A DNA stretch of 64,000 bases from Amphiscolops sp. MND2022. Lineage: Eukaryota. Shown here one piece after another: positions 29,539 to 61,158 of this stretch (positions within the stretch are counted from its first letter, which is position 1; each line of letters begins with the position of its first letter). The stretch lies in assembly GCA_964187785.1 (NCBI GenBank), contig OZ076414.1, positions 40,982,001 through 41,046,000 on the forward strand, given 5' to 3'. The position numbers were made by a program, and so were the translations under genes. The notes below the pieces were generated by a model. The model saw nothing but the letters and a program-made list of their open reading frames with translations, searched no databases and was not told where the DNA came from.

Positions 29539-29544
29539 AAAGAT

Positions 29545-32873: not shown

Positions 32874-33768
32874 AGCTCTGTACAGAAAAGGTCCATCTGC
32901 CTACGGAAGTATTTACAATCTGTCAAAAGCAAGTAATCTTTCCAGACGAAAAGTTGAAACCTTTTTGCAGGGGAAAAATGCACATACAAAGTATCGCCAG
33001 TCACGTCGTCATTTTCCACGTCTCAAAGTAATTGCTTACGACATTAATGAAATTTGGTCAATTGATTTAGCTTATGTTGATAAGCTAGCCAAGTACAACA
33101 ATGGTGTCAAATACTTGCTTGTTGCAGTTGATGTGTTGTCGCGAAAATTGCGAGTTGAACCAATGCGGTCCAAAACAGCAGAAGAAACAGCAAAAACGTT
33201 CGCTAGAATGACATCGATGACAAAGCCCAAGAAAGTATGGTCTGACAAGGGTACTGAATTCAGAGGAGCATTCAAAGATTTTTGCAACCGGAAAGGAATC
33301 GAAACATACACTACACACAGTGAGGCAAAGTCCGCGTTTGCTGAAAGAAACATTCGTTCACTTAAAAACATAATATACAAACACTTGGAAAATATCTGGT
33401 CCTATCGATACATCAATGAACTTCAATCATTTGTGAGAACAATAAATTCCCGCGTCAACAGAATGACTGGAATGGCTCCTAACAAAGTGGCTCAAAAACA
33501 TGTTAAGCGACTACTGTCATTAACAGCGGAACGGTCGAGCAAGCTAGTTAGAACACCAAAATTCAAAATCGGCGACAGAGTCAGAATAGCGAAGCAAGAC
33601 TTACCGTTCAAAAAAGGATACAAACAAAGCTTCACTGACGAGCTGTTCCGTATAACGAGCGTGAAAACATTCAGTCCACCAACATATTCACTAGCAGACG
33701 CTGAAGGCGAAGACATCCAAGGTAAATTCTACGAACCAGAGCTAACAAAAGTCAAGTGGAATGGATGA
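32779..33768 (+). CDS. Retrovirus-like (rve) DDE integrase (E2), intact
   Basis: WSIDLAYVD, VWSDKGTEF, AFAERNIRSLKN, KKGYKQSFT.E.F, GKFYEPEL. Confidence 0.96.
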   Translation: MKKQNQLMKILKTKRTLRNAGIVSTAEQKSLEALYRKGPSAYGSIYNLSKASNLSRRKVETFLQGKNAHTKYRQSRRHFPRLKVIAYDINEIWSIDLAYVDKLAKYNNGVKYLLVAVDVLSRKLRVEPMRSKTAEETAKTFARMTSMTKPKKVWSDKGTEFRGAFKDFCNRKGIETYTTHSEAKSAFAERNIRSLKNIIYKHLENIWSYRYINELQSFVRTINSRVNRMTGMAPNKVAQKHVKRLLSLTAERSSKLVRTPKFKIGDRVRIAKQDLPFKKGYKQSFTDELFRITSVKTFSPPTYSLADAEGEDIQGKFYEPELTKVKWNG

Positions 33769-34618
33769 GTTCGATATTTACTTGGAGTCCACTGGTTCTA
33801 TGGAAACCTATCAAGATAACAAGATGGCTTGCTTTAGAAATGTTCTTTCTGAACCTCTTCAGCTAGAGGGAGACTGGAGAGTTGCCCTGGCTGAAATTAT
33901 ACACCCCACGAGCATTAAAAATGTTACTACTTCTGAATACATGATCTACACACCCAAGACACCCTATGACATGGTACCAAAAATTACGAAACATTCGGAT
34001 GCTACCATAATCAAACGAGAAGATTGGTCAAACAATGCCTTGTTCCCAGAGGGAGAATATATTAGCGTCGAAAAAATTTTGAAGCAGCTAAAAAAAGGAC
34101 ATGAATCAAGGAAACCGCTCGAGGACGCCACTGTTTCGGATGACAATTACGTAGAGCTCAAATTTGCTGAAGGCCATGGAATCAGTGTTCGTGACCGAAG
34201 TATTCTGGACGTGTTAGGGTTCCAAGGAACACCAGACAAAAACAGAGGAGGATACTTCATTGGGACAAACTCGAACGCTCAAATTACAAGCCAACCAATG
34301 AAAGGCGACTTTCCAGCTGACATAACAGCAGGAACAAACATCTTTTTCACCTATTGTAACATTATCGAACATCAAAAAGTTGCTGGAGTAAAGGCACCAG
34401 TGTTACGAGTCATTGATAGTAAAAGAAAGCTGAAAGACGGTGAGCTCTTCAATACATCTGCAACTACTCATAAATCATTCTCCGAGCTGCAGTTCAAGAA
34501 ACTGGTTTTGAGCTCAATTCGAGAAATTTTCATTGAGCTGGTTACACCTACAGGAAAATACGTTCCGTTTGTCGGTACAGGAAGGGTGGTGATCACTTTG
34601 AAATTCAGAAAGTTTTAG
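33761..34618 (+). CDS. Minor capsid protein (penton-like) (E2)
   Basis: Homologous to E1 17026-17880; typical Polinton position. Confidence 0.87.
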   Translation: MDEFDIYLESTGSMETYQDNKMACFRNVLSEPLQLEGDWRVALAEIIHPTSIKNVTTSEYMIYTPKTPYDMVPKITKHSDATIIKREDWSNNALFPEGEYISVEKILKQLKKGHESRKPLEDATVSDDNYVELKFAEGHGISVRDRSILDVLGFQGTPDKNRGGYFIGTNSNAQITSQPMKGDFPADITAGTNIFFTYCNIIEHQKVAGVKAPVLRVIDSKRKLKDGELFNTSATTHKSFSELQFKKLVLSSIREIFIELVTPTGKYVPFVGTGRVVITLKFRKF

Positions 34619-34622
34619 CTAC

Positions 34623-35003
34623 ATGGAGACGTACTACACACGTCAGGCTACGATGCCCCACTTCTCAGGGCAGACAAGACAAAGAGGTAGTGGCATTGGA
34701 TCTTTAGCGCTCGGTGTTGGACGAGTTGCCCTGCCATTTGCTAAAAAAGTTCTTTTACCAGCTGTAAAGTCCATTGGGAAAGAGCTCTTTGTTCAAAGTC
34801 TACCAGAGTTAATGGAAGTTGCAACAAATAAAAAATCCCTTAAAAAAGCAGCTAAATCAACTTTAAGAAAGACAGCGAAAAAACAATTCGGAGCTGGAAC
34901 AAGACAGCGGAGCAGAAAAACTAGAAAGCGAAACAGTCGACAAAAAAGAAAGCTGAAGAGAAGTCGGTCCGATTTTTTCTCCAGAGTCAAAAATGTTACC
35001 TAA
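34623..35003 (+). CDS. Small basic core/pX-like protein (E2)
   Basis: RQRGSGIG motif, strongly K/R-rich C-terminal half, FGAG putative adenain site. Confidence 0.72.
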   Translation: METYYTRQATMPHFSGQTRQRGSGIGSLALGVGRVALPFAKKVLLPAVKSIGKELFVQSLPELMEVATNKKSLKKAAKSTLRKTAKKQFGAGTRQRSRKTRKRNSRQKRKLKRSRSDFFSRVKNVT

Positions 35004-36309
35004 TAATTTACCATTTGAAGCTTCTCATAGTTCTCTGGATTTATTCGAACGGTCTCCACTCTTGATCAATTTCGAGGCTTCATTCGAACAAAAAGTTGGA
35101 CCACTCTATGCTCCTAATGGACCAACACTAGAATTTGAAGTTACTGGCGACCGGACAAACTTCATCGACCTGCAAAATATATACTTGGAGGTTAAATGTA
35201 GAATACTTCAAGCGAACGGCAATGACTTACGATATGACGCAGCAGCCGCAGCGAACAGTGATTTGCCCTGTTTCGTTAACAACTCCCTTCATTCTCTTTT
35301 TGCAGATTGCAATGTTACAGCAGAAGGTGTTCAAATATCATCGTCAAACGGTAATTACGCTCATAAAGCGTTCTTAGAAACTGAATTCTCTCATAACCAA
35401 GAAGCAAAAAACACTTGGTTAAAATGTCAAGGTTACTGCTATGAGAAAACACCAAACAATTTTACCGATGAAGTCTTCACCAAGAGAGTGGCCGAGACAC
35501 GACAGTCACAATCAATAACGCTCATTGGGAGAGTAGCGTCAGACTTCTTTTCTTGCGATAAATACCTACTCAGTGGTGTAACTCTACGCATAACTTTCCT
35601 GAGAAATCGGCCAGAATTCTGTTTAATTTATGATGCGGATGCAAAAGAATACAAGGTTGAAATATCGCAAGCCAATCTTTATGTGCGGAAAATGACGGTC
35701 ACTGAACAAAATTTTGCAGCAATTGAAACCACGCTGGCTAAAAGTAACGCGTTCTATCATTACACTGAAATTATACCGAAGACATTTCTCGTGTCAAAAG
35801 ATAGCAGGAGCTGGAATCATGAAGACATTTTCAATCATGAACCCATCAGAAGATTTGCGCTGGCAATGGTAACAAATGAAGCTTTCCTCGGGGCGAAGAC
35901 AGTGAACCCTTTTCATTTTCAAAAGTTCAACTTGCAAAGCATCACTGTATACAGAAACGGATACCCTATTGCTGGGACACCACTACAGACAGAAAATGAC
36001 AAAAAACTTTATCTCAATTCACTGGAAGCTCTTCAATTCAAAACCCATGGACATGGTGTTCCATTCGAAGACTATGAAAATCATTATGTTCTAGTATTTG
36101 ACCTGACAAGCACTCAACAGGCATCATATGATTATTTGTATCCCGAGTTGACGAACGCTTCGATATCTATTGATTTGCGGTTCAAAGAAGACCTTCCCTC
36201 AAGCGTCGAACTTTTCTTCCTGGGTGAAAAAGCATCAACCATTTACGTCAACTCCGACCGTCAAGTTTCAAAAAACAGACAACTTAAAACTAAAACTGAG
36301 ACAAGATGA
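34993..36309 (+). CDS. Double jelly-roll major capsid protein (E2), 438 aa, intact
   Basis: SSLDLF, GPTLEFEV.GD...FIDL.N.YL.V, NN.LHSLF, P.RF..AMV, NPF.FQ.F, FDLTST; lies upstream of the protease. Confidence 0.93.
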   Translation: MLPNNLPFEASHSSLDLFERSPLLINFEASFEQKVGPLYAPNGPTLEFEVTGDRTNFIDLQNIYLEVKCRILQANGNDLRYDAAAAANSDLPCFVNNSLHSLFADCNVTAEGVQISSSNGNYAHKAFLETEFSHNQEAKNTWLKCQGYCYEKTPNNFTDEVFTKRVAETRQSQSITLIGRVASDFFSCDKYLLSGVTLRITFLRNRPEFCLIYDADAKEYKVEISQANLYVRKMTVTEQNFAAIETTLAKSNAFYHYTEIIPKTFLVSKDSRSWNHEDIFNHEPIRRFALAMVTNEAFLGAKTVNPFHFQKFNLQSITVYRNGYPIAGTPLQTENDKKLYLNSLEALQFKTHGHGVPFEDYENHYVLVFDLTSTQQASYDYLYPELTNASISIDLRFKEDLPSSVELFFLGEKASTIYVNSDRQVSKNRQLKTKTETR

Positions 36310-36737
36310 TTGGCGAAGTGGGACTGTGGGAGCTCATCAACAGATGCAAGTTTTTGAAATACAAGTTTGCAGGAGTGTACGCCGCCGATAACTTTCCAAC
36401 GCGACTGGACCAAAATACCTTCGTTATTGTGAACTCTGACAACTCAGATGAAGCAGGCAGGCATTGGCTTCTCTACTGTAAAAATACAGAGGACTATGCT
36501 TTCGGTGACCCCTTGGGACTACAACTCCGAAATTACCCAAACATCAACAAACGCTTAGCCTATGCCGATTTGAACATAAAAGAACTCATAGATTATCCGC
36601 TCCAAAAACCTACATCTAACCTATGTGGACTCTATTGTATATATATAGCGCACTATGCTTTAGGAGGCAGCTACCTAACAATTCCTGTGATATCTGAGAC
36701 AGAACTGATTCGATTTGTTACACACATGCAACAGTAG
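36306..36737 (+). CDS. Adenain-like cysteine protease (E2)
   Basis: GVYAADN, GRHW, FGDPLG, QKPTSNLCGLYC. Confidence 0.93.
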   Translation: MIGEVGLWELINRCKFLKYKFAGVYAADNFPTRLDQNTFVIVNSDNSDEAGRHWLLYCKNTEDYAFGDPLGLQLRNYPNINKRLAYADLNIKELIDYPLQKPTSNLCGLYCIYIAHYALGGSYLTIPVISETELIRFVTHMQQ

Positions 36738-36909
36738 ATACTAACATATATGCACTAACTCAAACTTTTCAAGGAAACGGTCTTTGTAAATAACCTTTTT
36801 TCGTGTAAACTTCTGCTTACTTCATACTATTCTCAAATTATTCTCTTTCATTGAAACTTTCATCTACTCTCGAATAAATATTTTAAAGCGCAAGAATTTG
36901 TTTTAAATT

Positions 36910-37593
36910 CTAAGATTGAAGTACAAAATGAATAGTATCAGTTCTGATTGATCCATTTCCTCTCACCAAAATGTCCATGATTGTTAGAAAAACAGATGAA
37001 TGAGGTCCGTTCAGCAAAATACATAAACGATTCAGGAAATTTAAAGCACTTTCGGGCACTCGTTCAACTTTGTCGAATAACTTCAGGCATGGAATTTTTT
37101 CTTTGTTTTTCTTCGGGCGCTTGAAAAAAACATTTTCCCCCAATTTTTCATTGTAGTCAACAGCCAGCTGCAACCTCAAGATGATCTCGCCGTTGCGTTT
37201 CAATTTTCGGCATTTATGCAACAGGAAGAAATATGTAGAATAGAGACAAGGCACAATGTGTCCACGTTCGTCTGATTGACCACTGCGCGCAATTTCAAGA
37301 AGAAGATGATAATGCGGTAGTGAAAATTGACAGTAAAAATCATGTTCCTCGGAATGGAAGCCAAACACAAAGTTCACCGTAGACTTGAAGTCCTCTCCAA
37401 TTTTTGGTTCAGTATATGAAACAAGAAAGCGAAAATCTTTTCGGAATTTTAGGAAAAACTCAGGCGTTCGCTCAACCATTGCTTCCACCATTTTCCGACT
37501 GAAAAAAAGCTTTAGTTGATCGAGAGAAAATAATACCATCACACAAGAAAAACACTTGGTATAAACTAAAACAAAGACAAAAAGTGAATCCAA
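36910..37593 (-). CDS. E2-specific hypothetical protein (likely start about 37490)
   Basis: Long ORF antisense to the core genes; no recognised family. Confidence 0.6.
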   Translation of the reverse strand: MDSLFVFVLVYTKCFSCVMVLFSLDQLKLFFSRKMVEAMVERTPEFFLKFRKDFRFLVSYTEPKIGEDFKSTVNFVFGFHSEEHDFYCQFSLPHYHLLLEIARSGQSDERGHIVPCLYSTYFFLLHKCRKLKRNGEIILRLQLAVDYNEKLGENVFFKRPKKNKEKIPCLKLFDKVERVPESALNFLNRLCILLNGPHSSVFLTIMDILVRGNGSIRTDTIHFVLQS

Positions 37594-37628
37594 AGTAATG
37601 TAAATTATTAGCTTTTATACAAACGCTT

Positions 37629-37982
37629 TCAAATAGTACTAGAAGGTGACAATTTTTTAAATTTGGAAACGCCAGTAGCAATAATTTGTTTCTCGGGTCG
37701 CTTCAGGATTCCAACCACACATTCTTTCACAGGTTGTGGTCCCATGTTGATATTCTCCGAATTATTGATCAAAGCTTGAAACTCCGGTGCGGTTAGGGTA
37801 ATGCGTTGGTCGATGTGAAATTCGCCATCAGAGCCCATTTTGAACAGCTTCAGGAAGATGTAAGTTCCGGTCGCTTCGTAGGTCTTCGTCGTGACTCTGA
37901 TCAATCTCCTATCGGTTTTCGAAATATCGAGGAAACTGTCGCCAAATTCTTGGTCAGTAGTGGAAGTAAAACGACCGCTCAT
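37629..37982 (-). CDS. E2-specific PC4-like putative ssDNA-binding protein
   Basis: RRLIRVTTKTY..TGTYIFLKLFK..SDGEF..DQRITLTAPEFQAL has the beta-beta-beta-helix pattern of PC4. Tentative. Confidence 0.55.
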   Translation of the reverse strand: MSGRFTSTTDQEFGDSFLDISKTDRRLIRVTTKTYEATGTYIFLKLFKMGSDGEFHIDQRITLTAPEFQALINNSENINMGPQPVKECVVGILKRPEKQIIATGVSKFKKLSPSSTI

Positions 37983-38435
37983 TGCTTTTGAGAGATCAAA
38001 TTGAAAACGGAATAATGATCACAACTGATTGCAAAATCTCGAAAGTGTAGAATAGCCGCAGTTTTCAGGTAAAAAGAAGTTTACATTTAATGTTTGAGTT
38101 CAGATTTCACTTGTTAGCGTTGAGTCTAGACAAAGAAAACATTAAATGTTTACAAACAATAAAAATATCAAATAGTTTTCATCAAGTTTTATGCTTTTCA
38201 TACAGAGCAGAACAAAGTTAATCATTTTAATTGGCCAGCAATAAAAAATGACCAAAAATCAACTGTTTGTTTGTTAAACGTCTAGGAACTTTTATGAAAA
38301 ACAAATAAACGATGATGATTAATCGAAACTTTTCCGGTTTTAGATTCATTAAAACACAATTCGCTGTTATGAAAAGACGGTATTTAACTTGAAACTCAAT
38401 CATCGAAGAACCATTCTGTCTTTCGGATCTTCATA

Positions 38436-39104
38436 ATGAAATTCGACATACAAGTACTAACTGATTCCGACGAAGCTACACGATACACTCTGTATGAAAC
38501 TTGGTTCAATAGAAAGATCACAATAGTTCTCGAACAAAAAATCGCTCATTCCTGGGAAGTGATTAATTCCCTTTCTGTGCCTAAAGCAGTCTTGAACGTT
38601 TTACAGACAGACACGAAACTTATGAGCCTCACCAAGGGGCTTCAAGGTGAAGAATCAGCTGATAAGAACTTCGATCATAGCACTATTTATGATCGCTTCC
38701 AACTACCGCCTGAAGTCAGGAGAGTTTTATTCGAGCGGGACTGCGAGGAAATTCCCATGTCAGAGAATCAAATGGGATACTTCAGTGACCTAGAGACCCT
38801 TGAATGGTTTTGGGAAATTGTTCAAGAATCTAGTCAAAGAAAAGAAGTGTCACCGCCATCCCCATTGAAGACGCCACCCCAAGAAGACAGCACTCAAGAG
38901 GGTGAAATGCTTTTGGAAGACGAACAAGAACCGCAGCGAATGGTTGAGCAGGCGGATGACAGCACTTTCATATGCGAAACATCAGTCACACCAACAAGAA
39001 AACAGTCATCAGATGACGCATTGTGCCCACCAGCGCCAAAGAAGAGCAGGATTCCTAGAGTTAACCCATCCGAACTGGAAACTTTAGATTTTTCACAGTT
39101 TTGA
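38436..39104 (+). CDS. E2-specific hypothetical protein with acidic/Ser-Pro-rich C-terminus and NLS-like PKKSR
   Basis: 222-aa ATG-initiated ORF between the protease and pPolB. Confidence 0.65.
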   Translation: MKFDIQVLTDSDEATRYTLYETWFNRKITIVLEQKIAHSWEVINSLSVPKAVLNVLQTDTKLMSLTKGLQGEESADKNFDHSTIYDRFQLPPEVRRVLFERDCEEIPMSENQMGYFSDLETLEWFWEIVQESSQRKEVSPPSPLKTPPQEDSTQEGEMLLEDEQEPQRMVEQADDSTFICETSVTPTRKQSSDDALCPPAPKKSRIPRVNPSELETLDFSQF

Positions 39105-39440
39105 CTTTCTTTCGAGTCAAGCTTTTGATATCCTGAAAAAAGTACCGCTTATGTATGTGAGTGCTCAGGCTTCCAATTCTTTGAAAATATAAATTGCTTT
39201 CATATTGTTTTCGATTCAATAGCATACGAAAAGAAATAGTTCCAGCATGAAAGTTCCAAGAAACTCTAATATTTATAAGCAGGTTATTAATTTTCAGCAA
39301 AAAACAACCAATCAGAGAGCAACAACAAAATCTAATTTGAACATAAACACTCAGCAAATTCATAACCTAAAATCAACCAATGATAGAACAACAAGTCTAA
39401 TTGATTACAAAAATTAAATTCTTAAAACTTAACTAGCGAA

Positions 39441-42400
39441 ATGCAGCGTTGTGATATCTGTACCAAAACATTTGCTAACCGACAAAACTTGAATCGCCAC
39501 CGCAAAAACATTCATGGCGTAAGGCGGAACGTCCAAGAAATATTTTGTAGTCTCTGCAACTTCAGATCGCATTCACTGCTAGAAATGCAATCACACCTAT
39601 CAACAGAGCACGAAGGAAACCCAGTTAGGGTTTGCGTTTACTGTAAAAAAGTCTTTATTCAAGAGAAGGAATTCAAAAATCATTTACACAGTGAACATTC
39701 TTTACCTGCGTCCCAACCAATTGATCCGTCTGAAAACATTCGAACGAAATCAGCGTTTAAAAACACGTTCCAAAGTTTTTACGTAGATGGTGATGGTAGC
39801 ATTGACCTCATTCAATTCATGCTACAGAACGAGCTGATTGTTCGTCAAACTTTACTGGAAAATGCACAAAGTTCGCCACTGAAAATGCAAATGAGTGCAA
39901 ACATTCGACTGCAGAAACCTGTCGAAGAAAATCCAGAAACAATAGAGATCCACTTGAACACGGAAATGAGAACTGTTTTCGCAGATGGGCTTTCCACCGA
40001 GGATTACTTCGATATGATTGACAACATGCTAGCTATTCTATGTTCCTTCACAGCTCATGGCAGCGGATGGGCTCTGGAAAAAATAAACCACCTCGAAGTG
40101 AAAATGGCGAAATTTACACCAGTCAGAGGCTCGTCTTACATTGCACTACCCGGTGAGTTACAAGGTCTTCGCAGCCTTTTGAATATACGCAATCATCGCG
40201 ACAACAAGTGTTTCCTTTATTGCTTTACTGCCGCTTATCACTCACATCATGGCCCAGAACTTGAAACGGATACATGGCGAACAGTAACCAGTCCAACTCT
40301 CTATAGTTCTAACAACCCGTCAGCTCACCAAGCAAACGGGTTATACGACATGCCGATGGGCTTCAAAGATTTGCCGAGGTTTGAAAACTTGAACAGCGTG
40401 CAGGTTAATATATTCAGATACGAAAAAAAGCAGCTCTACCCTCTCCGGTTATCCAAGCGAACAGACCATGGTTTCACAATGGACTTGCTATTGTTACAAG
40501 AGGACGACGTCTACCATTATGTTTTGATAAAAAATTTATTGAATCTTGTGAATCACGTGAGACAACGTCGTCCCCGAACTGGAGACCTTATTTGCCGTAA
40601 TTGTTTCCATATCTGCACGCCAATCAATTACGAAAAGCACCGTGGTAATTGCTGTAAATTCGAACCTGCGGCTATTGAGATGCCATCCGAAGAACAAAAG
40701 AAAATAAAATTTCAAAACTTCAGTGCCCGGGCCAACGCACCAGTGGTTATTTACTTCGACTTAGAATCGCTGATCGTTCCCACAAATGTGAGCCAGAATC
40801 AGGATAGCAAAACTCGAGTTTTAGAAAAGCATGAACCATGCGGATTCTGTTTCGCCATAATTGAAGAAGGATCTGATCAACCTGCTTATCTATCGATCGA
40901 CAGATCTGAATCATGTATGAAAAAACTGGCGCATCAACTCCAGTCAGTGGCCAGAGAAGTCTATCAACGAAAACAAAGCCATCGAGTCTTTCAGGGAAGA
41001 CCACCTTACACAAGTGATCAAGCAACAGAATGCTGGATTTGTTGCTCACCCTTTGTAGATGAGACAAAAGTGTTGGACCACTGTCATTATTCAGGCAAGT
41101 TCCTGGGATACGCTCACAACCAATGTAATTTGAAGAGGAGAAGCACAAACTACGTGCCAGTTATAGCACATAATTCTTCAAATTATGATATTCATCATTT
41201 GTGTAAAAACTTGCACGAATTTGACCCTGAATGCAAAGTTGACATTATCCCTTTGACAGACGAAAAGTACGTCACCTTGTCCATTGGCGTCAAAGTGAAT
41301 TCTTTCACTGATAAAAACGGCGTTACAAAGAATGTATACGAATATTTACGATTCATTGATTCGTATCGCTTCTTACCATCATCATTGGACAAATTGGTTA
41401 GTTACCTACCACCAGAAAATTTCAAAATAATGGACACTTACTTTGAAAACTATCAACCTGTTGAAAAAGAATTATTGCACAAGAAAGGATTTTATCCTTA
41501 CAATTACTTTACAAACTTTGATAAGTTTGCAGAGAAAGAGTTACCTCCCCTAAAGTATTGGACAAACAGCTTGAAGGGTAACGAAACATCTATTACTGAA
41601 ACAGAGTACGCGCATGCACAGAAAGTTTTTGCAATTTTCGGATGCCAATGTCTCGGAGATTATCATGATCTTTACCTAAAAAGCGACACATTGTTGCTGG
41701 CGTGCGTGGTGGAGGCATTCAGAAAACTTTGCTATGACACTTATAGTCTCGACCCTGTTCACTACTTCACGTCCTCACATTTGTCAGGTGATGCATTCCT
41801 AAAAACATGTAATGCTGATATCGAGCTGCTCACAGACAGAGAACATCTAGAAATGACAGAAAACATGATTCGAGGTGGTGTAGCATCAGTTTTCTCCAAG
41901 AGGTTTTTCAAAGCTAACAATAAATATCAAATGTCCTTCAATCCAGACGAAGAGTCGACTTTTGGGTTCCTAGTTGATGCCAACAACCTGTATGGCGGAG
42001 TGATGGAGAAATTACCTCTTCCAACGAAAGACTTCAGAAAAGTTAACGTCACGCTGGAACACGTTCTACAAACACCAATTGATTCTCCCGTTGGTTATAT
42101 ACTAGAAGTTGATTTGGAGTATCCTGATGCTCTACACGACCTTCAAGAGGATTTTCCTTTAGCTCCAACCAAAGAGATTGTTGACGGAGCCTTTCTTAGT
42201 GACTATCAGCTAAACATTCTAGAACGAATGGGCATGAAAAATGTGAAAACAGCCAAACTGGTACAAACGCTGAACAGCAAAAACAATTATACTCTACACT
42301 ATTTAAATTTAAAACTGTATGTAGAGCTGGGTCTAGTCGTTCGAAAAGTTCATCGAGTACTTCAATTTCAGCAATCCACTTGGTTGAAACCCTACATAGT

Positions 42401-43709
42401 GAAAAATACGGAGAAGAGACAACAGTCAAACAACAAATTCGAGGAAAGTTTCTTCAAACTCATGAATAACAGCTGCTATGGAAAAACCTTGGAGAGTAAA
42501 AGAAACCGCGTAAATGTTCACCTGGTTAGAACTATACTAGCAGCTCAAAAGGCGGTTGATAAATCTCTGTTGAAAACATTCAAGATCTTCGACGAAAATC
42601 TTGCTGCGGTGACTCTGAAGCAGACCAAAATTTATTGGAATAAACCAACAATCGTGGGAGCATGCGTATTGGAGCTAGCTAAATATCACATGTACAACTT
42701 CCACTACAAAGTCATGAAAAAGTTTTTCGATTGCCAGCTTGTCTATTCAGACACTGATTCCTTACTTTACGAAATAAAGCACCCGGACTTGTACCAAGAA
42801 CTGGTAGAAAACCATGAGCTTAAACAAAACTTTGACTTTTCGAATTATCCAAGAAATCACCCTCTCTTCAGTGACAATAACAAAATGGTAACTTTGCTTT
42901 TCAAAGACGAAATGGGAGGAAAAATTATGGAAGAGTTTGTTGGCTTAAAGCCAAAGATGTATTCCATCAAGTTCGATGATGGTAAGCAAAAATTGTCTGC
43001 CAAGGGAGTTTCACGCTTCGCTCAAACATCATTGAAACATGACGTGTATAAAAACGTCCTTACAACGAATAACCTGATCCGAACAAACAACATAAGAATT
43101 GGTTCCCATAACCATCAATTGGAGACAATTTGCAACAACAAAATAGCTTTATCCGCTTTCGATGACAAGCGATTCATTCAAGAAAACGGTATTCAGACCC
43201 TGCCTTTCGGTCACTATCTAATAAGAGACATCGCAGCTTTCAGAGAAATACTGCAAGATCCTGATTGGGGCGAAGAAGAAATGGTAGGAAGTCCTGAGTG
43301 GGACACTCTTTTGCGAGATTATGGACCGGAACATTTTGACGACAGATCAAACAGGACACTACCTGAGCAACGAACACCTCCGCCAAGATCAGCCCTGAAC
43401 AGAACGCTAACACAGCTGAACGACAGTTGGTCACCGCCCGACCCTGGCTTTCATCAAGACGAATACACTGAGTCTGACTTGGATGAAGGAACCTTAGAAA
43501 TCATGGCAGAAGTTATGGGAACCCACATTTCCGACTTTTATGCAACGTATGGAGAAGAAATTTCAGAGCCTGTCAGAAATCCATACATAGATGATGAGGC
43601 AGAAGAAAGTGAAGTGATTTCAATCGATCCGGTGGGAGAAGAGGAACAACCTTCAAGAAAACGACGACGACATGTGATCATACTGAGTTCTGATGATGAT
43701 TCTCAATAG
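39441..43709 (+). CDS. Protein-primed family B DNA polymerase (pPolB) polyprotein, 1422 aa, intact (E2)
   Basis: C2H2 fingers; terminal protein/vOTU-like region (NHRDNKCFLYC); YFDLES; EndoVII-like CWIC..DHCH..G...G.AH..CN; HNSSNYD; DANNLY; KLMNNSCYGK; YSDTDS; acidic tail. Confidence 0.97.
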   Translation: MQRCDICTKTFANRQNLNRHRKNIHGVRRNVQEIFCSLCNFRSHSLLEMQSHLSTEHEGNPVRVCVYCKKVFIQEKEFKNHLHSEHSLPASQPIDPSENIRTKSAFKNTFQSFYVDGDGSIDLIQFMLQNELIVRQTLLENAQSSPLKMQMSANIRLQKPVEENPETIEIHLNTEMRTVFADGLSTEDYFDMIDNMLAILCSFTAHGSGWALEKINHLEVKMAKFTPVRGSSYIALPGELQGLRSLLNIRNHRDNKCFLYCFTAAYHSHHGPELETDTWRTVTSPTLYSSNNPSAHQANGLYDMPMGFKDLPRFENLNSVQVNIFRYEKKQLYPLRLSKRTDHGFTMDLLLLQEDDVYHYVLIKNLLNLVNHVRQRRPRTGDLICRNCFHICTPINYEKHRGNCCKFEPAAIEMPSEEQKKIKFQNFSARANAPVVIYFDLESLIVPTNVSQNQDSKTRVLEKHEPCGFCFAIIEEGSDQPAYLSIDRSESCMKKLAHQLQSVAREVYQRKQSHRVFQGRPPYTSDQATECWICCSPFVDETKVLDHCHYSGKFLGYAHNQCNLKRRSTNYVPVIAHNSSNYDIHHLCKNLHEFDPECKVDIIPLTDEKYVTLSIGVKVNSFTDKNGVTKNVYEYLRFIDSYRFLPSSLDKLVSYLPPENFKIMDTYFENYQPVEKELLHKKGFYPYNYFTNFDKFAEKELPPLKYWTNSLKGNETSITETEYAHAQKVFAIFGCQCLGDYHDLYLKSDTLLLACVVEAFRKLCYDTYSLDPVHYFTSSHLSGDAFLKTCNADIELLTDREHLEMTENMIRGGVASVFSKRFFKANNKYQMSFNPDEESTFGFLVDANNLYGGVMEKLPLPTKDFRKVNVTLEHVLQTPIDSPVGYILEVDLEYPDALHDLQEDFPLAPTKEIVDGAFLSDYQLNILERMGMKNVKTAKLVQTLNSKNNYTLHYLNLKLYVELGLVVRKVHRVLQFQQSTWLKPYIVKNTEKRQQSNNKFEESFFKLMNNSCYGKTLESKRNRVNVHLVRTILAAQKAVDKSLLKTFKIFDENLAAVTLKQTKIYWNKPTIVGACVLELAKYHMYNFHYKVMKKFFDCQLVYSDTDSLLYEIKHPDLYQELVENHELKQNFDFSNYPRNHPLFSDNNKMVTLLFKDEMGGKIMEEFVGLKPKMYSIKFDDGKQKLSAKGVSRFAQTSLKHDVYKNVLTTNNLIRTNNIRIGSHNHQLETICNNKIALSAFDDKRFIQENGIQTLPFGHYLIRDIAAFREILQDPDWGEEEMVGSPEWDTLLRDYGPEHFDDRSNRTLPEQRTPPPRSALNRTLTQLNDSWSPPDPGFHQDEYTESDLDEGTLEIMAEVMGTHISDFYATYGEEISEPVRNPYIDDEAEESEVISIDPVGEEEQPSRKRRRHVIILSSDDDSQ

Positions 43710-44204
43710 AACTTTTCCTGGACTTTCCTAACTACATATTTCATTCAGTTCTTGTCCAGTATTCATGATTTTGTTATTATTCATATCTGTTCAGTATCAT
43801 AAAACTTGGCTGACTTGTATTTTACGAGTTAGTAGATAGACACAACCACAAGAAATTCGCATACCTAAGCAAACATATTATTCAGGTATGTGTTCAAAGT
43901 AGGACAGGTTGAGGAGACAAAGAGAGACGCGATGACCCAGAAGCGTGTAATAGGAGAGAAAAACTAACGCTGAAGCGAAGCAAGCGTAAACAAAAGCTTG
44001 CGAACTTTCAAGGTGTTCTCTAGAGGCATCAAGTGTTGTTTTGTTTTGGTTATTCAACTGAAGAACCTATTCTAGTTGAAAGAAGACTAGTAAAAGTGAA
44101 AACTGAAACATAGCTCGACCACTCATTGGCTGATGCGAGCCAGTAATGTTCATCGATTAAGATTTTAAGCAATCTATACTGTTGCCTCCGCTAAATTCAT
44201 CATT

Positions 44205-46110
44205 TTTCTTTTCAAAAACCATGAAAAAAGTCGACAAAATAAAAACCCAGCGTGGGGGGCTATACCCCCTAGGAAGTACATTCAATGCTGAATCGAATGG
44301 TACCAACCCCCCACTCGTATCTTTACTATACGTGGAGAAATCGACAAAACATTTTTTGTAATTTTTTCAAATTTTTAGATTTTTTTCAAAAACCATCAAA
44401 AAAGTCGGGAAAATAAAAAACCCAGCGTGGGGGGCTATACCCCCTAGGAAGTACATTCAATGCTGAATCGAATGGTACCAACCCCCCACTCGTATCTTTA
44501 CTATACGTGGAGAAATCGACAAAACATTTTTTGTAATTTTTTCAAATTTTTAGATTTTTTCAAAAACCATCAAAAAAAGTCGGGAAAATAAAAAACCCAG
44601 CGTGGGGGGCTATACCCCCTAGGAAGTACATTCAATGCTGAATCGAATGGTACCAACCCCCCACTCGTATCTTTACTATACGTGGAGAAATCGACAAAAC
44701 ATTTTTTGTATTTTTTTTCAAATTTTTAGATTTTTTCAAAAACCATCAAAAAAAGTCGGGAAAATAAAAAAACCAGCGTGGGGGGCTATACCCCCTAGGA
44801 AGTACATTCAATGCTGAATCGAATGGTACCAACCCCCCACTCGTATCTTTACTATACGTGGAGAAATCGACAAAACATTTTTTGTAATTTTTTCAAATTT
44901 TTAGATTTTTTTCAAAGACCATCAAAAAAAGTCGGGAAAATAAAAAACCCAGCGTGGGGGGCTATACCTCCTAGGAAGTATATTCAATGCTGAATCGAAT
45001 GGTACCAACCCCCCACTCGTATCTTTACTATACGTGGAAAAATCGACAAAACATTTTTTGGATTTTTTTCAAATTTTTAGTTTTTTTCAAAAACCATCAA
45101 AAAAAGTCCGGAAAATAAAAAACCCAGCGTGGGGGGCTATACCCCCTAGGAAGTACATTCAATGCTGAATCGAATGGTACCAACCCCCCACTCGTATCTT
45201 TACTATTCGTGGAGAAATCGACAAAACATTTTTTGTAATTTTTTCAAATTTTTAGATTTTTTTCAAAAACCATCAAAAAAAGTCGGGAAAATAAAAAACC
45301 CAGCGTGGGGGGCTATACCCCCTAGGAAGTACATTCAATGCTGAATCGAATGGTACCAACCCCCCACTCGTATCTTTACTATACGTGGAGAAATCGACAA
45401 AACATTTTTTGTATTTTTTTCAAATTTTTAGATTTTTTTCAAAAACCATCAAAAAAAGTCGGGAAAATAAAAAACCCAGCGTGGGGGGCTATACCCCCTA
45501 GGAAGTACATTCAATGCTGAATCGAATGGTACCAACCCCCCACTCGTATCTTTACTATACGTGGAGAAATCGACAAAACATTTTTTGTATTTTTTTTCAA
45601 ATTTTTAGATTTTTTCAAAAACCATCAAAAAAAGTCGGGAAAATAAAAAACCCAGCGTGGGGGCTATACCCCCAAGGAAGTACAATCAATGCTGAATCGA
45701 ATGGTACCAACCCCCCACTCGTATCTTTACTATACGTGGAGAAATCGACAAAACATTTTTTGTATTTTTTTCAAATTTTTAGATTTTTTCAAAAACCATC
45801 AAAAAAAGTCGGGAAAATAAAAAACCCAGCGTGGGGGGCTATACCCCCAAGGAAGTACATTCAATGCTGAATCGAATGGTACCAACCCCCCACTCGTATC
45901 TTTACTATACGTGGAGAAATCGACAAAACAAATTCAAAAAATTTTCATTTTTTTTTTATTTTTTCGAAAAAACATTTAAAAAAGTCTGGAAAATGAAACA
46001 CCCAGCTTGTTGGGTTATATCCCGCTGGAAGCCCTTTTCATAACGAAGCGAATGGTACCACTTTCATGTGTGTATCTTTCTTGTACGAAGAGAAATTAAC
46101 AAAAATATTT
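44205..46110. repeat. Tandem array of 10 near-identical units of about 176 bp plus one degenerate unit
   Basis: CCCAGCGTGGGGGGCTATACCCCCTAGGAAGTACATTCAATGCTGAATCGAATGGTACCAACCCCCCACTCG.. recurs every 175-177 bp; variation is mostly in homopolymer lengths. Confidence 0.97.
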
Positions 46111-46248
46111 TCAAAAAATACCAAAAATAATGATTTTTCCCATTTTTTCCCTTAAAAAATCAATGAAAAATGGGTAAAAACGTTTCTTATCCACAAAAAA
46201 AACCTTCACACCATGGTTTCTATGCACCAGAAGCTTAAAAAAACTCAT

Positions 46249-46512
46249 AAAAAATTTTCCCGATCGGGGTTCGAACCCGACCCCTACCGGGGTGCCACCC
46301 CAATAAAAGTGCTCGGAATGCCTTTTTAGGGCATTTTTAGGTCTTTTTAGGGCGCTAGGGCGAAAATTTCGGGCACCCCCTAGGGCGCCAGGATGGTAAA
46401 ACCCCTTAGGTTTTTTGTCCGGGAAGCGGCGAACCCAAGGCGATTTTTAGTGCTCCCGTCCGCCCGCAAAGCGTGATTGTTCCCGTTGACTTAACCACTA
46501 CGCCAACGGGCC
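46249..46512 (-). ncRNA. Candidate Pol III transcript: tRNA 5' and 3' halves separated by an approximately 200-nt GC-rich insert
   Basis: TATTTATATA at -25 to -34; A box TGGCGTAGTGG (46505-46495); T arm TCGGG-TTCGAAC-CCCGA (46280-46264); acceptor CCCG/CGGG in register; T6 at 46254-46249. Confidence 0.55.
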
Positions 46513-46572
46513 ATTGAAATCAATAATTTTTACTACTATATAAATAAACAAAACGGTCGTAAAATTTTTATT

Positions 46573-46664
46573 ACGGTCGTAAAAATCAAGGATTAGACCC
46601 GTTGTTAACTGCCAAATCCCAAAGGACACCCCCCGTTGTGAACCCTCCCATCTTCCATACTACT
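46573..46664 (-). repeat. E2 right terminal inverted repeat
   Basis: Reverse complement of 28719-28810; ends ACTACT, followed by TSD AACATA. Confidence 0.96.
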
Positions 46665-47894: not shown

Positions 47895-50800
47895 CTGAGA
47901 TGTATTTCCTTGCACTCGAACAATTCAGGAGGGCACTTGTATCCGTGCTCAGAGGTCAAGTCGGCGGTGCAATGGGTGTCGGGTATCATGAGGTCATCTA
48001 GTTGGATGTCACTGACATTGGCACCTTTGCGCACACAGTGGTGCTTCAACTCTCCAAAGAACTGTACCCCCACTAGTCCGTACAGCGAAAGGAAAAATAG
48101 AAAGAACATCGTCACGTTCCACACTTGCTTGCCTGAACGCCTGAAATGATGCATTCAAGTTTATTGAAGTTGAAGGGTAAAAATTACTCTGTAAAAAAAT
48201 CACACCAGTGTAAAAGAGCCCAAAACTCTTTTTTTTTTCAAATGAATCTTTATACTGTCGAATCTTTATACTTTTTGTACTGGTTAAAAGGATCCGACAC
48301 CTGAACTGTACGATTAACGTCGTGTTAATAAAAGAGAATTTAAAACGCCTAGGACTTGCACAAGTTTTCCACTTCTCTGCTCGAGTCGAGCAGAGAAGTG
48401 GAAAACTTGTGCAAGTCCTAGGCGTTTTAAATTCTCTATTATTAACACGACGTTAAACTACAAGACAATAGAAACAGGAACATCTCAGTAGATCCTTCGT
48501 TCACTTATTCTGCTTCATCCAAAAATCACTGATGAATTTTGAGACGAACTGAGCAACTTGAACAATTTCGACAGGTTTCAGGAAATAAGAAGAGAGAATC
48601 TACGTCAGTCAAACGCTTCATAACAATGAGCAACGCATGACAGCATCATTCAGGCGACTAAGGAAGAACACTTCTAAAAACGAAACGCTTTCTAGGAATG
48701 AAGGCCACATTTTATATACATGTTTATGGAAAAGTATCGACACAACAAGACTTATACTATGTTTTCAAAGAAATACAGATGACTAATAGTCACACTTTTC
48801 TGAAAAAACAATAATCAACGTAGAATTACCACATATTTAAACGGAAGCTTTTGATGGCTCAGAAACAGGAAACGATGTTTGCCTCTCAATAAAAACTATT
48901 CATTGACAAATGACGTCATTAGCAGTCATCCACAGCAAGTAACAGTTAAAAAGCAGCTAGGCATTTTCACGGATAAATAGGACAGCACATTCTGATGTTC
49001 GTGTGTAACGACAACAAACTCGAGTTCGTGTTTGACGAATCCAACAAAGCAATGCATTTCGTCCATTGTGAATTACAGTTTCGCACGATGAAACGACATG
49101 ATATATAGCGAGGGCATTATTTTACGCAGATCAGCCAATAAAATAAGCGAATACGAGAAATGATATTCTTGATTTTCACTCAGTTTTGCCATACAAATCG
49201 AGAAACTCCATTCTTCCCAACAACCCGCAAACAAAACTCTAATGCAAGAGCTTGCAAAAGCAAATTCCCATTACATCTTGAAACAAGACATTTCCAGCAA
49301 ATTTAATGGCAAAACCTTGCCCACCGCCATTTTTCTCATATTCGTGTCCAACAGAAACAAAAAATGAAAATCTTTTTGGGTTTGCAAGTAAATTTGCAAT
49401 GGTGCCGAGAATTTCCTGCAGAAAAATACATTTCTAGTTCACTTTGCCCACAATTCATGGATAAAACTGTTTTCAAAACATAATATATATCATGTATCTT
49501 TGGGAACTTACAATAGTATTTGCTTAGGAACTTTGGGATAATATTTGTCGAAGACAGGAAACGAAACAGATTTCTCATTTTTATTCATACTTTGGCCGTC
49601 TATCTGCTGTAGAGAGAAGTCGAATAATCAACAAACCTGAATATTTTGGAGACTTTGTTATCCTCGGAAGTCAGGCTGACTGACTTGTTGGCTGACACCC
49701 TGAAGGATAAGTAGTGTCTCAGGGGCTTAAGGATGATCAGAGTGCGGGGCAGACGCAACATGCCGATTCCCCCGTTGGGCTTGAACCAGTTGAACAACAG
49801 CATCATCTTAAACAGCAAAAACATAGGAAGCTAGACAGTCTTTTATGATGAATGGTTCCGTTGCACCATTCGAAAACAATGTCTGTACTCGAAGATAGTG
49901 CATCGCAAATATGATTTGGGACCGTTTAAACAATTTATAGAATCCAGAGAAAGTGTAATAATCCAGAATTCATTGGAAACCAGCCAGAGCACTGACAGAG
50001 ATCTTCGATCAAGCAAAGCTTTAAACTTCTGGCGTCAAAGTAATGGGAAAACTGTCAGAAAAATTAATACTCACAAATTGTGTTGCAGGTGCGGTCACGT
50101 GATTTAACAGTGCCAAGAAATGGCACGAGATCTAGAAACTTCGACAACTAACCTGGATTGCCAAGGAAATCCAATGAAATGTGGTTACAATTGCATCGAA
50201 GCCCCTCCAGAATGAAAACAACCTGGTAGAACCCGCGTCCGTCGCCTTCGATCTCTAAAACATCATGTTTGGTACCATCTCAAATACTGGTAGAATCGAA
50301 ATCGGATGTGGTATCACACGCCGGAAGCTATTCAACATCGTTGAATAGACTGGAACGTGAATTTTCAAGTAAGATGCAGATCAAAACTTCAACAAAACGC
50401 TCAGTTTAGACCAAGTTCTGTTCAGCATGGAATATTGAGAAAGCTGAAAAAAGAAACACTCTGAGAAACAGCAAGTTTTTAAAATCCCTTGGTACTTGGA
50501 TGGCTCAATAACTTTATCTTACAGCAATGTGTGAGAGAATCTGTCAAGACGAAGGGAGATTTATAAAATTTATGAACAAAAACTTTGTTTCTTTCATTAT
50601 TTTCATTAAAATCTGTAACAATATGTCAACGATGGGCATCTTGTTGAGTCTCGGCGAAAAAAATTCGAGTGCACCGTTATATCGATCATGGCATCCCATG
50701 AAGGATAAGGGAATCATTTGGGATTAAAAACCTGATGATCTATTTGCAAACAACCAGTAATTTAATGCGGCATCAGTCAGAAGATATTGGACAATACACT

Positions 50801-53471
50801 TAGAAGCATTCAGTCACATTACATTGGCAACTGACATCATTTATGAGGAATGAAATTTTTACTAACTCGTTTACACACATGACGGAAAGTGGACAACGAC
50901 TCGAGAGTGAAGACAATGGCGAGGAACAAGTCAACTGTGAATATGCCCCAGAACACAGTAAGATTGGGCTCGTAGTGCACAAGGTTGGGGTTACCCCCCG
51001 GACCTGCCCCGTACAGTTTCTGAGAGGTCTCCACTCTGGTGAACAACATCTTGGGAGTGTTCATGCAGATAGAGACGAAGCTGATGAAGGAGCTCAGCCA
51101 AAGGAGACACCTGGCCCACTGAAACAATGCAACAGTGCCCAGACAAAATACACTTTAGACTCAAAAAGGTTTTTCTCTTTGGCGAACCCTTTGGTGAAAA
51201 TTTCAATAAAAAACAAGAGGGGACCCTTTGATCAAACATGCAGTTTCGTAGTTTAAGTAAAAATTTGGTGAATATTTCAATTTAAAAAAAGGACCTTTTG
51301 ATCAAATCATGCAGTCTCGTAGTTTAAGTAAAAATTTCCAAGTGGGGCTTCCTCTTAGGTAAACTTTATGTCGTGGGCTGGAAGGTCTGTGAAAATTTAA
51401 ACAATTTAGACATATGCTGAGGCTTGACAAAAAACTAGTCACTGTAATAGTCGGGCACTTTTTAAACAAAGAAAGAGTATATCAAACAAGACGGGAACGT
51501 CCCAAGTCGGCGCCATATCTTAGGCTCAAAAATATTCAAGGAACAACTATTGGAAAAATTTGGAAAAAAAAATTTTTTTCAAAAAAAAAATTTTGATTTT
51601 TTTTCGAAAAAAAAGTATTTTTTAGGTCGCACAATGCCGAAAAACTCATTAAAAAATTTATGGTTTAGTGCGGGATTCGAACCCACGCTCTCCGGCTGGG
51701 TCGAAGATGAAAGATGAACAAATATGAAAGATGAACAAAAATTGTAAGAAAAGTGGACCACTCAGAGTGAGATTGTCAACTGAAAAAAAAAAACTACTCA
51801 CTGTAAGAGTCGGGCTTTTTTCCTTAAGGGAAAAGGCGCCGACTAATAACTTTCCAAAAATGTCTACCCCTAAATGTTTTGAACTGCTTTCGGAAAAAGG
51901 CTAAAACTAGTTCAATGGAAACACGACTAGAGTGAATGAATTATTTATTGATTTGTTACCCGTGGGCGTACAAATTACAAACGATAAAGAAAATGATAAT
52001 TAGCTAGTACTAGTTGTATAAGCTTTACAAATAATACCGCACAGGGCGGACACTTTTTTTAGTAATTCAATATTCACGGTGTTCATCAGCTGGTCAAATT
52101 TCACCATATTCGGATACGAGTAATAAAAATCCGGAAGAAGTTCAACCCTACTATCTCTAAAATATTCACATACCATAATCATGTGATATTCATCGGCTTT
52201 ACATTGCTTACAGCAGAACGGACAATTTTGGTTATAGTTGTCCGTTATTCTCTCTGTCACTCTCGGTGACGTGTACGGTGCGCAGCGAAATTGGCTTAGT
52301 TGCACCCTTTGTTTACCCTTCCTTTTCTGTAGGTAAGGTTCTAGAAGCAGCCGATGTTTGAATCCCCTATAGCAGTCGCAAAGTGAGGTGGAATGTAGCA
52401 TCGTATGCCAGGATTGAATAGCTAAGTCTTCGCATTGTCGCTTAATATACTTCTTGAACTCGGTGTCTCTGATGTAATTCACGTATGTATCTACCATAGG
52501 TATTCCGCAGCTAACCATAATATTTTCCACACTCAGAATCCATTTGTTCTCATATTCGTTAGAATTGATTAGCCAAAACATCGAATTCGAAAAACTTTTT
52601 TTATCGTACGAAAGTTTTTTCCGAAAAGATGCCATTCTTTGCCATCTTGTAAATTTCAGTTCTTTTTGGCCTAACTCCCCATATGTCATTGCTTTAGGGG
52701 CACTTTTTCGTATACGAAGCAGACTTCTGAGAAAATTACGGTGAAAAACTTCAATCTGCTCAATGTCCTCATGGCCCCACACTTCACAACCATATTGTAA
52801 AATGGGCTTTATCATCACGTCAAAAAGGTGTATTTTGGTGTCTATTTCGAGATCGATTTTACTCATAAGAACATCCAATTTGAATAGTGCCTTTTTAGCT
52901 TTATCGACATTGTTTTTCATTGCAGCTTGAAACGTGTTGTTGTACTTTAACATGACTCCGAGGTAGCAAAATTTATTGACACGCTCAATTGCAGTTCTAT
53001 TAATCAATTGCCCGGAACAAAGAGGCTTTTTCATTTCACTCTTGAAGTAATTTTTAGATTACTAGTAAAAACAATTTTCAATTAGAAAACTATTGTCTCG
53101 CAATTATAACGTGAAGGATGTTTGAAGTAAGAGACACTGGCCTGTTTCAACAATTTTCCAATAGGATAACTTTAAAAAAGACTTGATATGATAACCTTTT
53201 TGTCGAGCCATTCTGGGTTGAGCGGTCCAATAACAGTAGCGTTAGTATCCAGCCTGTCGTCGAAAGCGGCGGCTTCAGCCATAGCAGCCACATTGGGAGG
53301 TGAGGGAAGATTTGCCGCATTCGAGGGGGGATGGCCGGTAGCTGCAGTTGAGGCTGGCTGGTTAACCCCGCCAACAACAGACTGTGCATTATTGCCCACG
53401 GCACCAGTGACTCCCCCTTGCGAGGCCATGGCCCCTCCACCTGTTGCTGTTGTTGATACTGGGTCCAACAT
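47895..53471 (-). CDS. NALCN: NALCN 5' block (N-terminus and domain I). Exons 53471-53196, 51118-50867, 50254-50153, 49806-49685, 48140-47895
   Basis: EWLDKK|WARCLL..SICMNTP, WRGFDAIV..WISLAIQ, GMLRLPRTLII (S4), K|RSGKQVW..LYGLVGVQFFG..HCV, IPDTHC. GT-AG junctions are in phase. The first exon is low-complexity and less certain. Confidence 0.92.
48314..48456. repeat. 143-bp near-perfect palindrome (71-bp arms, 1-nt loop)
   Basis: Centre CTGCTCGA-G-TCGAGCAG; one arm mismatch. Confidence 0.93.
51484..51850. repeat. Composite host repeat (family A head, B-box-like fragment, family B)
   Basis: Family A head at 51484; GGGATTCGAACCC at 51672; CACTGTAAGAGTCGGGC..GGCGCCGACTAA at about 51799-51846. 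Confidence 0.6.
51935..53040 (-). mobile_element. 5'-truncated non-LTR retrotransposon (LINE) in NALCN intron 1; RT C-terminal/thumb region and CCHC-like tail (ORF 52000-53034)
   Basis: F.YLG, I.PIL.YG.EVWG, FHRNFLR..L, YGELG, CPFC..DEYH...C motifs typical of the LINE ORF2 C-terminus. Boundaries are approximate. Confidence 0.85.
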
Positions 53472-60558: not shown

Positions 60559-60957
60559 TTTCAAGCATAAACTAAGTCTGAAAACAAACAATATAGTTGG
60601 AAAATGTATACTGAAAACTGATCAAAAATAACATTAAAAAATTTTTTTGAAGTCATGTCTACACAAGCTCAATAATTTATTATTTGCTGATCTCATTTTT
60701 CACAAGCTATTCACATAAATCGAAATGCAAGAGGAAAGTTTCTTATGTTTTCATATTAGTACAGGTGAGCCCAAAGACATGTTCCATTGTTCGATATCGG
60801 ATGTTCCGCATCGAGATTCTCGTTTTACCAATGAAGGTCAAAGTGCACTTCCAGGAACCAATGTGAATGAAAGTGGAACCAAACCTAGACGGCTTATATA
60901 ACACTGAAATTTTCAATTTTTGGTAAAACGAGAATCTCGATGCGGAACATCCGATAC

Positions 60958-61158
60958 ACCAAATTATACTCTTGAAGATACAACTTGAAATACTAAGTTG
61001 ATTGGATTTCATAACGGTAGTCGAAGTGACCATCCATTCTCGATGAAATGAAAACAAGTTGTTTTCATTTCATCGAGAATGGATGGTCACTTCGACTACC
61101 ATTATGAAATCCAATCAACTTAGTATTTCAAGTTGTATCTTCAAGAGTATAATTTGGT
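60958..61158. repeat. 201-bp near-perfect palindrome (100-bp arms, 1-nt loop), with an adjacent 35-bp inverted repeat pair at 60796-60830 / 60921-60955
   Basis: Centre GAAAACAA-G-TTGTTTTC; one arm mismatch. Confidence 0.93.

Follow-up and report, generated by a model that had tools for sequence, protein, structure and literature searches.

The yeast SNR6 gene combines a TATA element at -30, an A box near the start and a distant B box that lies beyond the terminator, with a T run between two boxes that stand 202 bp apart and are joined by a nucleosome (PMC9136082). Viral Pol III genes offer a further set of comparisons. In the BLV pre-miRNA genes, the A box sits inside a 5' hairpin and the terminators lie between the A and B boxes (PMC4267658, PMC8223928), and the TMERs of MHV68 are tRNA-derived viral Pol III units with hairpins (PMC4378190). 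VA RNAI, VA RNAII, and the EBERs share a type 2 promoter, a virus-like DNA genome, a probable tRNA ancestry, and alternative terminators (PMC7589676, PMC4378190); a tRNA derivation has been hypothesized for the VA genes (PMC7589676), and the EBERs have an upstream TATA-like element (PMC4378190). Among mobile elements, the TRIMp3 retrotransposons (Cassandra, Helenus, and Ajax) carry tRNA or 5S promoters in their LTRs, that is, the Pol III promoter of a small-RNA gene kept in or at a terminal repeat, possibly acquired via a SINE (PMC10886601). Polinton-like viruses and virophages contain tRNA-type sequences inside Polinton-class genomes (PMC12220804, PMC8502044), and the tRNAs of the Polinton-like viruses are detectable by ARAGORN or Rfam and have been read as translation aids (PMC12220804). 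In the available text of PMC8502044, predicted tRNAs are mentioned once, in a legend on other MELD viruses, and neither tRNA nor polymerase III occurs in the main text of PMC8097293. Within the mainly open literature searched, we found no description of Pol III noncoding RNAs (ncRNAs) of animal Polintons.

We describe here a stretched tRNA-type unit beside one terminus of such an element which, by its anatomy and its conservation, is a real, selected, and new form of the viral tRNA-derived Pol III unit; its transcription is predicted, and by its predicted structure it is not a VA RNA. The window, by which we mean the whole 64,000-nt stretch of Amphiscolops DNA that was analyzed, holds two Polinton/Maverick elements, E1 (5217-22947) and E2 (28719-46664). 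The 1.07-Gb genome is rich in such elements: a search with a polymerase fragment gave 2119 first-look candidates, of which the best 150 were scored. E2 is a Polinton/Maverick by its packaging ATPase (31251-31979) and integrase (rve; 32779-33768), both above the Pfam cut-off, its protease-like ORF (36306-36737; a weak Pfam match to adenoviral-type protease, E 0.008), its 1422-aa polymerase ORF (39441-43709, plus strand; labeled by reading of the ORF, with Pfam matching zinc fingers only), its terminal inverted repeats (TIRs), and a 6-bp target duplication, AACATA, that flanks both outer ends. The right, polymerase-end TIR (46565-46664) is 96% identical over 100 nt to its partner at 28719-28818.

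Several other features of the two elements and their surroundings deserve mention. Small terminal ORFs of both elements show, by eye, an EGF-like cysteine pattern (E1, 22452-22721, minus strand; E2, 28950-29279, plus strand), and Pfam gave no match for that of E2. Between polymerase and TIR, E1 has a 173-aa ORF (6253-6774, plus strand) that matches both ribosomal protein S5 domains (PF00333, E 1e-8; PF03719, E 3e-6). Unrelated tandem arrays occupy the same place between polymerase and terminus, with an 83-bp repeat in E1 (7808-9271) and a 175-bp repeat in E2 (44177-46055). Two near-perfect palindromes with 1-nt centers lie at 48314-48456 (71-bp arms) and 60954-61162 (104-bp arms), where the Rfam miRNA matches fall below the cut-off.

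The E2 unit begins 53 nt inward of the inner TIR edge, is encoded on the minus strand, and points inward, toward the 175-bp array. Numbering it from +1 at G46512, we find a TATA element, TATTTATATA (46546-46537), with TATATA at -30 to -25; an A box, TGGCGTAGTGG (46495-46505), at +8 to +18, which correspond to tRNA positions 8-18; and a hairpin covering the A box (46482-46510), which is a D arm extended so as to take in the 5' acceptor strand. A GC-rich insert of about 200 nt follows (46281-46481), made up of short CCTAAAAA-type repeats and three T4 runs, at 46401-46398, 46366-46363, and 46308-46305, that start at +112, +147, and +205. Beyond it lie a canonical T arm, TCGGG-TTCGAAC-CCCGA (46264-46280; +233 to +249), whose B box, GGTTCGAACCC (46277-46267), begins at +236; an acceptor remnant, CGGG (46259-46262; +251 to +254), in tRNA register with CCCG at +3 to +6; and a T6 terminator (46254-46249) from +259. 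The first-pass annotation had listed the TATA, the A box at position 8, the GC-rich insert, the T arm, the CCCG/CGGG register, and the T6, and every one of them is present; the hairpin that it placed over the A box is also there, at 9 bp including one G-U pair rather than 7 bp.

These signals are unlikely to have come together by chance. TATA, A box, T arm, and a run of T4 or longer occurred together in 0/300 dinucleotide shuffles of the 18-kb E2 and in 0/5000 shuffles of the local 400 nt, in which the T arm alone arose seven times. The four-base-pair acceptor register has a chance probability of about 1.3%. Four of the seven acceptor pairs of a tRNA are kept and there is no anticodon arm, so that the unit does not form a tRNA cloverleaf; ARAGORN made no call on it, and neither did Rfam at E up to 1, which returned no VA match and no U6 sequence. 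A hidden ORF was considered and rejected: the longest frame through the unit, of 111 codons on the minus strand, has no ATG inside it, and the rest are shorter than 60 codons.

The distance between the A and B boxes, 217 bp, lies outside the roughly 30 to 60 bp usual for type 2 Pol III genes, a range that the functional SNR6 gene also exceeds. With a TATA at -30, a first stop at +112 to +115, and a B box 217 bp past the A box, the layout closely parallels those of SNR6 and the BLV genes. Unlike SNR6, however, the unit has no U6 sequence, sets its B box in a tRNA T arm that is followed by an acceptor remnant and a T6, and is borne by a mobile element, and nucleosome bridging is only proposed for it. 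It differs from the BLV genes and TMERs in having no hairpin of pre-miRNA length over the A box, a gap of 217 rather than 30-60 bp, and no upstream cloverleaf, and from the VA RNAs and EBERs in its far longer A-B distance, its internal T4 runs, its position at a genome end, and the absence of a predicted terminal stem, apical stem, and central domain. In contrast to the tRNAs of Polinton-like viruses, it escapes both scanners, lacks an anticodon arm, and adjoins a TIR. TRIMp3 elements are nonautonomous LTR retrotransposons that need their own RNA copy, whereas a Polinton replicates as DNA; the promoter must therefore serve another purpose here than in TRIMp3.

Where transcription would stop can be judged from the host. 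We compared 70 distinct tRNA gene contexts of the host (65 Lys, 5 Arg) over 45 nt: the first T run was T5 in 52 and T4 in 11, and 7 had none. The tRNA-Phe gene of the window is followed by a T4. Since host tRNA genes end at T4-T5, the internal T4 runs plausibly terminate too, probably giving nested RNAs, which we infer to end near +115, +150, +208, and +264. In human cells, one T4 lowered the output of a Pol III reporter no more than about twofold (PMC8223928). The first-pass annotation envisaged one product of about 264 nt, which, with three internal T4 runs and host stops at T4-T5, is doubtful as the sole product. A TATA at -40 to -20 was seen in 0/70 of the host tRNA contexts against 17/25 outward-pointing Polinton units, the latter scored with a looser pattern and thus not strictly comparable.

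The unit belongs to the element and not to the genome at large. A genome search gave 29 matches, all adjoining a TIR of the E2 family, which reduce to 25 insertion sites (four matches make up a single tandem array, two are fragments of the same copy, and one is the window itself); in copy L018 the TIR is displaced from the unit by about 600 nt. The insert searched alone gave 25 matches, 25/25 at E2-family unit sites, although its presence elsewhere in the genome is not strictly disproved because very common words are passed over by the DNA search. A head pattern of 21 nt, allowing 2 mismatches, matched 30 times, 26 of them within the family and the other 4 in tRNA-like repeats scattered through the host genome, and 23 of the 25 matches to a 25-nt tail pattern (up to 3 mismatches) were in the E2 family. 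A dispersed host SINE, the finding that had been named as one that would undo the proposal, is ruled out by the confinement of all 29 matches to TIR-adjacent sites and of all 25 insert matches to identical places. Insertion of a MITE into a tRNA-like gene was likewise rejected, the insert not being found outside the E2 family in a search that skips very common words. These results support a tRNA-type Pol III cassette fixed in a Polinton terminus. At G000:C2 53.94-53.95 Mb (L020-L023), four tandem copies of the E2-family terminus, each with TIR and unit, follow one another at intervals of about 1975 bp.

Divergence within the E2 family provides evidence that the unit is constrained. The family comprises two subfamilies, E2a (the window) and E2b (L050/L051), whose polymerase DNA is about 75% identical. 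Between them the unit differs at 10/263 sites (3.8%), and the three lowest of 343 sliding windows over 18 kb overlap it, against a median of 11.8%. Divergence is 7.6% in the ATPase and integrase, 9.0% in the major capsid-like ORF, 24.6% in the polymerase (58% at four-fold sites), and 6-31% in other noncoding stretches; the TIR, though nearer the end, has diverged by 6-7%, with subfamily-specific variants. A polymerase block at about 25% and a structural block at 8-9% meet at sharp borders, pointing to module exchange between subfamilies. Because E2 is a mosaic, the fair test is a local one that sets the unit against the sequence directly downstream. The alignment of the genomic matches was made without five truncated ones (L025-L029) and the self match, and signals, terminator, and A-B gap were compared in eight of the 28 matches other than the window.

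Over the five diverged copies taken together, shared lineage variants occupy 6/262 columns of the unit versus 24/255 downstream (p=0.0005). The insert by itself, with shared lineage variants at 5/185 columns, shows no less constraint than the boxes do. Taken singly, three of the five copies give a significant contrast, and L019 (p=0.13) and L020 (p=0.084) do not. Lineage changes in L017 and L018 number 17 in the unit and 57 downstream, whereas private, post-insertion mutations in 15 young copies number 16 and 10; the contrast between private and lineage changes is significant both against these 17/57 (p=0.0006) and in a second comparison (p=0.002). Private mutations are as frequent in the unit as in the spacer, and low mutability thus does not explain the conservation. 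Conservation between lineages drops directly after the T6, and the young copies, like L017, have kept all four signals (TATA, A box, B box, and T6) intact. These contrasts indicate that purifying selection spans the whole unit, from TATA to T6 and including the insert, and they add selection to the element-fixed cassette first proposed. Because E2 is a recombinational mosaic, recent exchange of the segment could mimic constraint, and the similarity of the unit could reflect one recent conversion tract; the TIR, however, is more diverged than the unit.

The predicted fold of the whole 263-nt RNA is weak (z -1.68; 10/200 shuffles as good), and only the 5' hairpin over the A box is more stable than in shuffled sequence (z -4.4; 0/300 shuffles), the insert helices being matched by 14-78 of 300 shuffles. 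The B box sits in an interrupted 13-bp 3' hairpin (z -1.6). In L017, both 5'-stem changes and the single 3'-stem change preserve pairing by G-U/G-C or U-A/U-G exchanges; the events are few, and the stems are rich in G+C. Among the insert changes at paired sites in L017 and L018, the best-preserved diverged copies, five break predicted pairs and two keep them. The ends thus resemble RNA hairpins, and the fold of the insert is unsupported. Covariation across copies, which the first-pass annotation had put forward as a check, gave no significant support for the insert fold (22-82 of 500 shuffles on four measures, 17/500 on a fifth). No complementary target longer than 12-15 nt for the unit RNA was found within the 64-kb window.

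We favor, with a probability of about 0.45, the reading that the E2 unit is an ncRNA gene of Pol III, maintained for the sake of its RNA. In this view TFIIIC, helped by the TATA, would span the nucleosome-sized 217-bp gap by binding both boxes, A and B, as on SNR6; Pol III would start near 46512; and leaky stops would fall at the T4 runs (+115, +150, +208) or else at the T6 (+264). The TFIIIC and Pol III steps draw on known Pol III biology, whereas the anatomy of the unit, its place in the element, and its purifying selection are shown by the sequence comparisons. The RNA appears to have swapped its cloverleaf for local hairpins, an extended D arm at the 5' end and a hairpin over the T arm at the 3' end. 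By analogy with VA RNAs, EBERs, and TMERs (PMC4378190, PMC7589676), the likeliest use of such nested, hairpin-bearing short RNAs would be as decoys for the element; this role against host RNA-silencing or RNA-sensing proteins is the most speculative step and, taken on its own, doubtful.

The rival that survives best, possible if on the unlikely side, is that the unit acts as DNA, as a chromatin boundary or nucleosome organizer: TFIIIC and TFIIIB held beside the TIR would keep the terminal origin and promoters open, and the RNA would be a by-product. tRNA genes and TFIIIC sites can insulate. Much of what bears on this proposal comes from other Polintons. E1 has a tRNA-like unit of ordinary length (22812-22892, plus strand) that points outward, head to head with its EGF-like ORF, so that, as first noted, the E1 and E2 units differ in end (the EGF-like ORF end in E1) and in direction. 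In the E1 clade, where 15 ends were assigned by TIR type only and L053 and L054 are absent from the tree, 25/33 located polymerase ends carry a B-box unit no farther than 420 nt from the terminus; 22 of these also have an A box matching the pattern, and 8/33 ends have no intact B box; six of the 39 polymerase-end stretches (L044, L143-L147), with no TIR end in range, went uncounted. At the EGF-like ends of this clade a unit is present at 12/12 (11 plus E1's own), two of which carry a single B-box change, and unit and ORF stand head to head around a shared TATA. The counts are not independent, because many of these units are copies of the same subfamilies. E1-clade units are of ordinary length, point outward, have several different heads, and occur singly or in pairs. 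In one outward type an 11-bp hairpin covers the A box, with one pair that is U-A at 10 loci, U-G at 4, and C-G at 1. ARAGORN at default settings called 1/4 outward-unit loci. E1 also contains two 91-nt copies (6950-7040 and 7218-7308, plus strand) in which TTCGAACTCC precedes a long T run and which may be additional degenerate units of the Pol III type.

Such terminal units lie 60-400 bp from the termini across families, a position that a boundary explains better than an RNA gene does. A boundary also finds support where, in several families, the TIR runs into the unit and duplicates the B box at both ends while the A-box halves differ (L031/L059, L041/L062, L032/L069, and others), in the TATA held in common at EGF-like ends, in the weak RNA fold, and in an A-B gap of nucleosome size that varies by no more than about 2 nt in L017, L018, and L019. 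Yet an insert as conserved as the boxes, with conservation stopping at the terminator, is more than a spacer needs; the 10-11 bp AT/GC periodicity of the insert is only borderline (52/1000 shuffles as strong); the G-U-tolerant hairpin changes point to RNA pairing; and the E2 unit, unlike the other units, points inward and lies outside the TIR. The RNA-gene and boundary readings are not mutually exclusive.

The tree bears on how the E2 line came by its unit. A split of the E1 clade from E2, L030, and L037 has support of 99/98 on a 126-column tree, and the nearest E2 relatives examined (L030; L037/L092) have no unit at either end. These absences, together with the 8/33 ends without an intact B box, show that such units are not essential for all Polintons. 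The TATA of E2 aligns with an AT-rich motif in the longer TIR of the sister family L030, which suggests that the unit was acquired behind a terminal element that was already present and faced inward. The simplest reading that fits the tree and the unit-less relatives is a separate gain in the E2 line, with loss in L030 and L037/L092 a possible alternative. The original statement that such cassettes were gained twice is consistent with this for E2; as a count, it says too little about a clade in which terminal units with several different heads are habitual, often at both ends. No relatives of the units in other organisms were found among viral contigs, and three metagenome matches to the E1-type motif were set aside as they looked like ordinary tRNA-type sequences.

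It is improbable that the unit is the relic of a captured tRNA-derived host repeat, without present function and alike in the subfamilies because of recent recombination close to the end of the element. In L017 the head agrees at 24/25 nt, much of it generic A box, with a single copy of an old host tRNA-derived repeat whose family has 1115 first-look candidates, and the tail of the unit matches a different decayed host element at 22/25 nt; one of two distant tail matches was rejected as chance-like. The mosaic nature of E2 and the relatives without a unit would also suit a relic. Against it stand the TIR, nearer the end and more diverged than the unit, with its subfamily-specific variants; the coincidence of the conservation drop with the T6; and the intactness of all four signals in the young copies and L017. 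The same matches bear on the origin from a split tRNA first proposed: the in-register CCCG/CGGG mildly favors a single split parent, and it is the single parent that is weakened by a head and a tail that resemble two different host repeats. A parent tRNA was not found in a host tRNA search that gave mostly Lys and Arg arrays, and a search with a Glu-type pattern had no match. Among the arrays, the tandem tRNA-Lys(TTT) arrays L101-L130 contain many copies with altered anticodons (TTC, TCT, TTA, and others). At 51630-51715 (minus strand) of the window, a T arm with a B box and without an A box lies inside an abundant host repeat (1095 candidates; the best 40 scored at 100% identity), which gave no further match to the 3' flank of the unit.

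Less probable still is a true counterpart of VA RNA, a single 264-nt RNA, closed by a terminal stem, that would inhibit a PKR-like kinase. The two internal boxes, a T-run terminator, a virus-type host element, strong conservation, and the tRNA derivation hypothesized for VA genes all recall VA, and 5'/3' acceptor pairing can be forced at a cost of only 4.5 kcal/mol. The predicted structure, however, does not. The probability of terminal (acceptor) pairing is about 2e-4 and that of the T stem about 0.05, each strand being captured locally, and the CGGG is predicted to pair locally rather than with the 5' end. We see no terminal stem holding the A box and no long stable apical stem holding the B box; GGGU and ACCC tetramers both occur in the unit, with no matching three-domain fold predicted by a method without pseudoknots. 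Three T4 runs inside the unit, where host tRNA genes stop at T4-T5, and the absence of a Rfam VA match also speak against it. PKR is, moreover, largely a vertebrate protein, and the host tRNA-Lys differs from the vertebrate form. The VA-RNA analogue first suggested thus fails on predicted structure, for want of a terminal stem, a strong fold, and covariation. Least probable of all is a Pol III precursor of small guide RNAs in the manner of BLV or the TMERs, its T4-ended hairpins cut by Dicer, since the two predicted hairpins that are followed directly by a T4 run, as in BLV genes (+69 to +112 and +124 to +141), are each short or interrupted and no better than in shuffled sequence, the 5' hairpin has only 9 bp with the first T4 as far away as +112, covariation is lacking, and the window holds no target.

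If the preferred reading of a Pol III ncRNA gene is extended, one can speculate, as a long shot, that the ends of animal Polintons are a nursery of viral Pol III RNAs, in which tRNA-type promoters would repeatedly be captured beside the TIR, lose their cloverleaf, and gain new hairpins; the E2 unit, stretched by 200 nt into a defense-blocking RNA with its tRNA ends still readable, would then be a living intermediate between tRNA and VA RNA. Polintons have been described almost only by their proteins, and E2 carries a noncoding unit that exceeds its capsid, ATPase, and integrase in conservation. That unit is invisible to tRNA and Rfam scanners, and Polintons of the other clade bear simpler units at most of their ends. 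If these units are transcribed, they would be Pol III ncRNAs of an animal Polinton and would offer a graded natural series on which to test the tRNA origin of VA-type RNAs. Should they act as DNA instead, a virus-like element would be bracketing itself with the insulators of its host.
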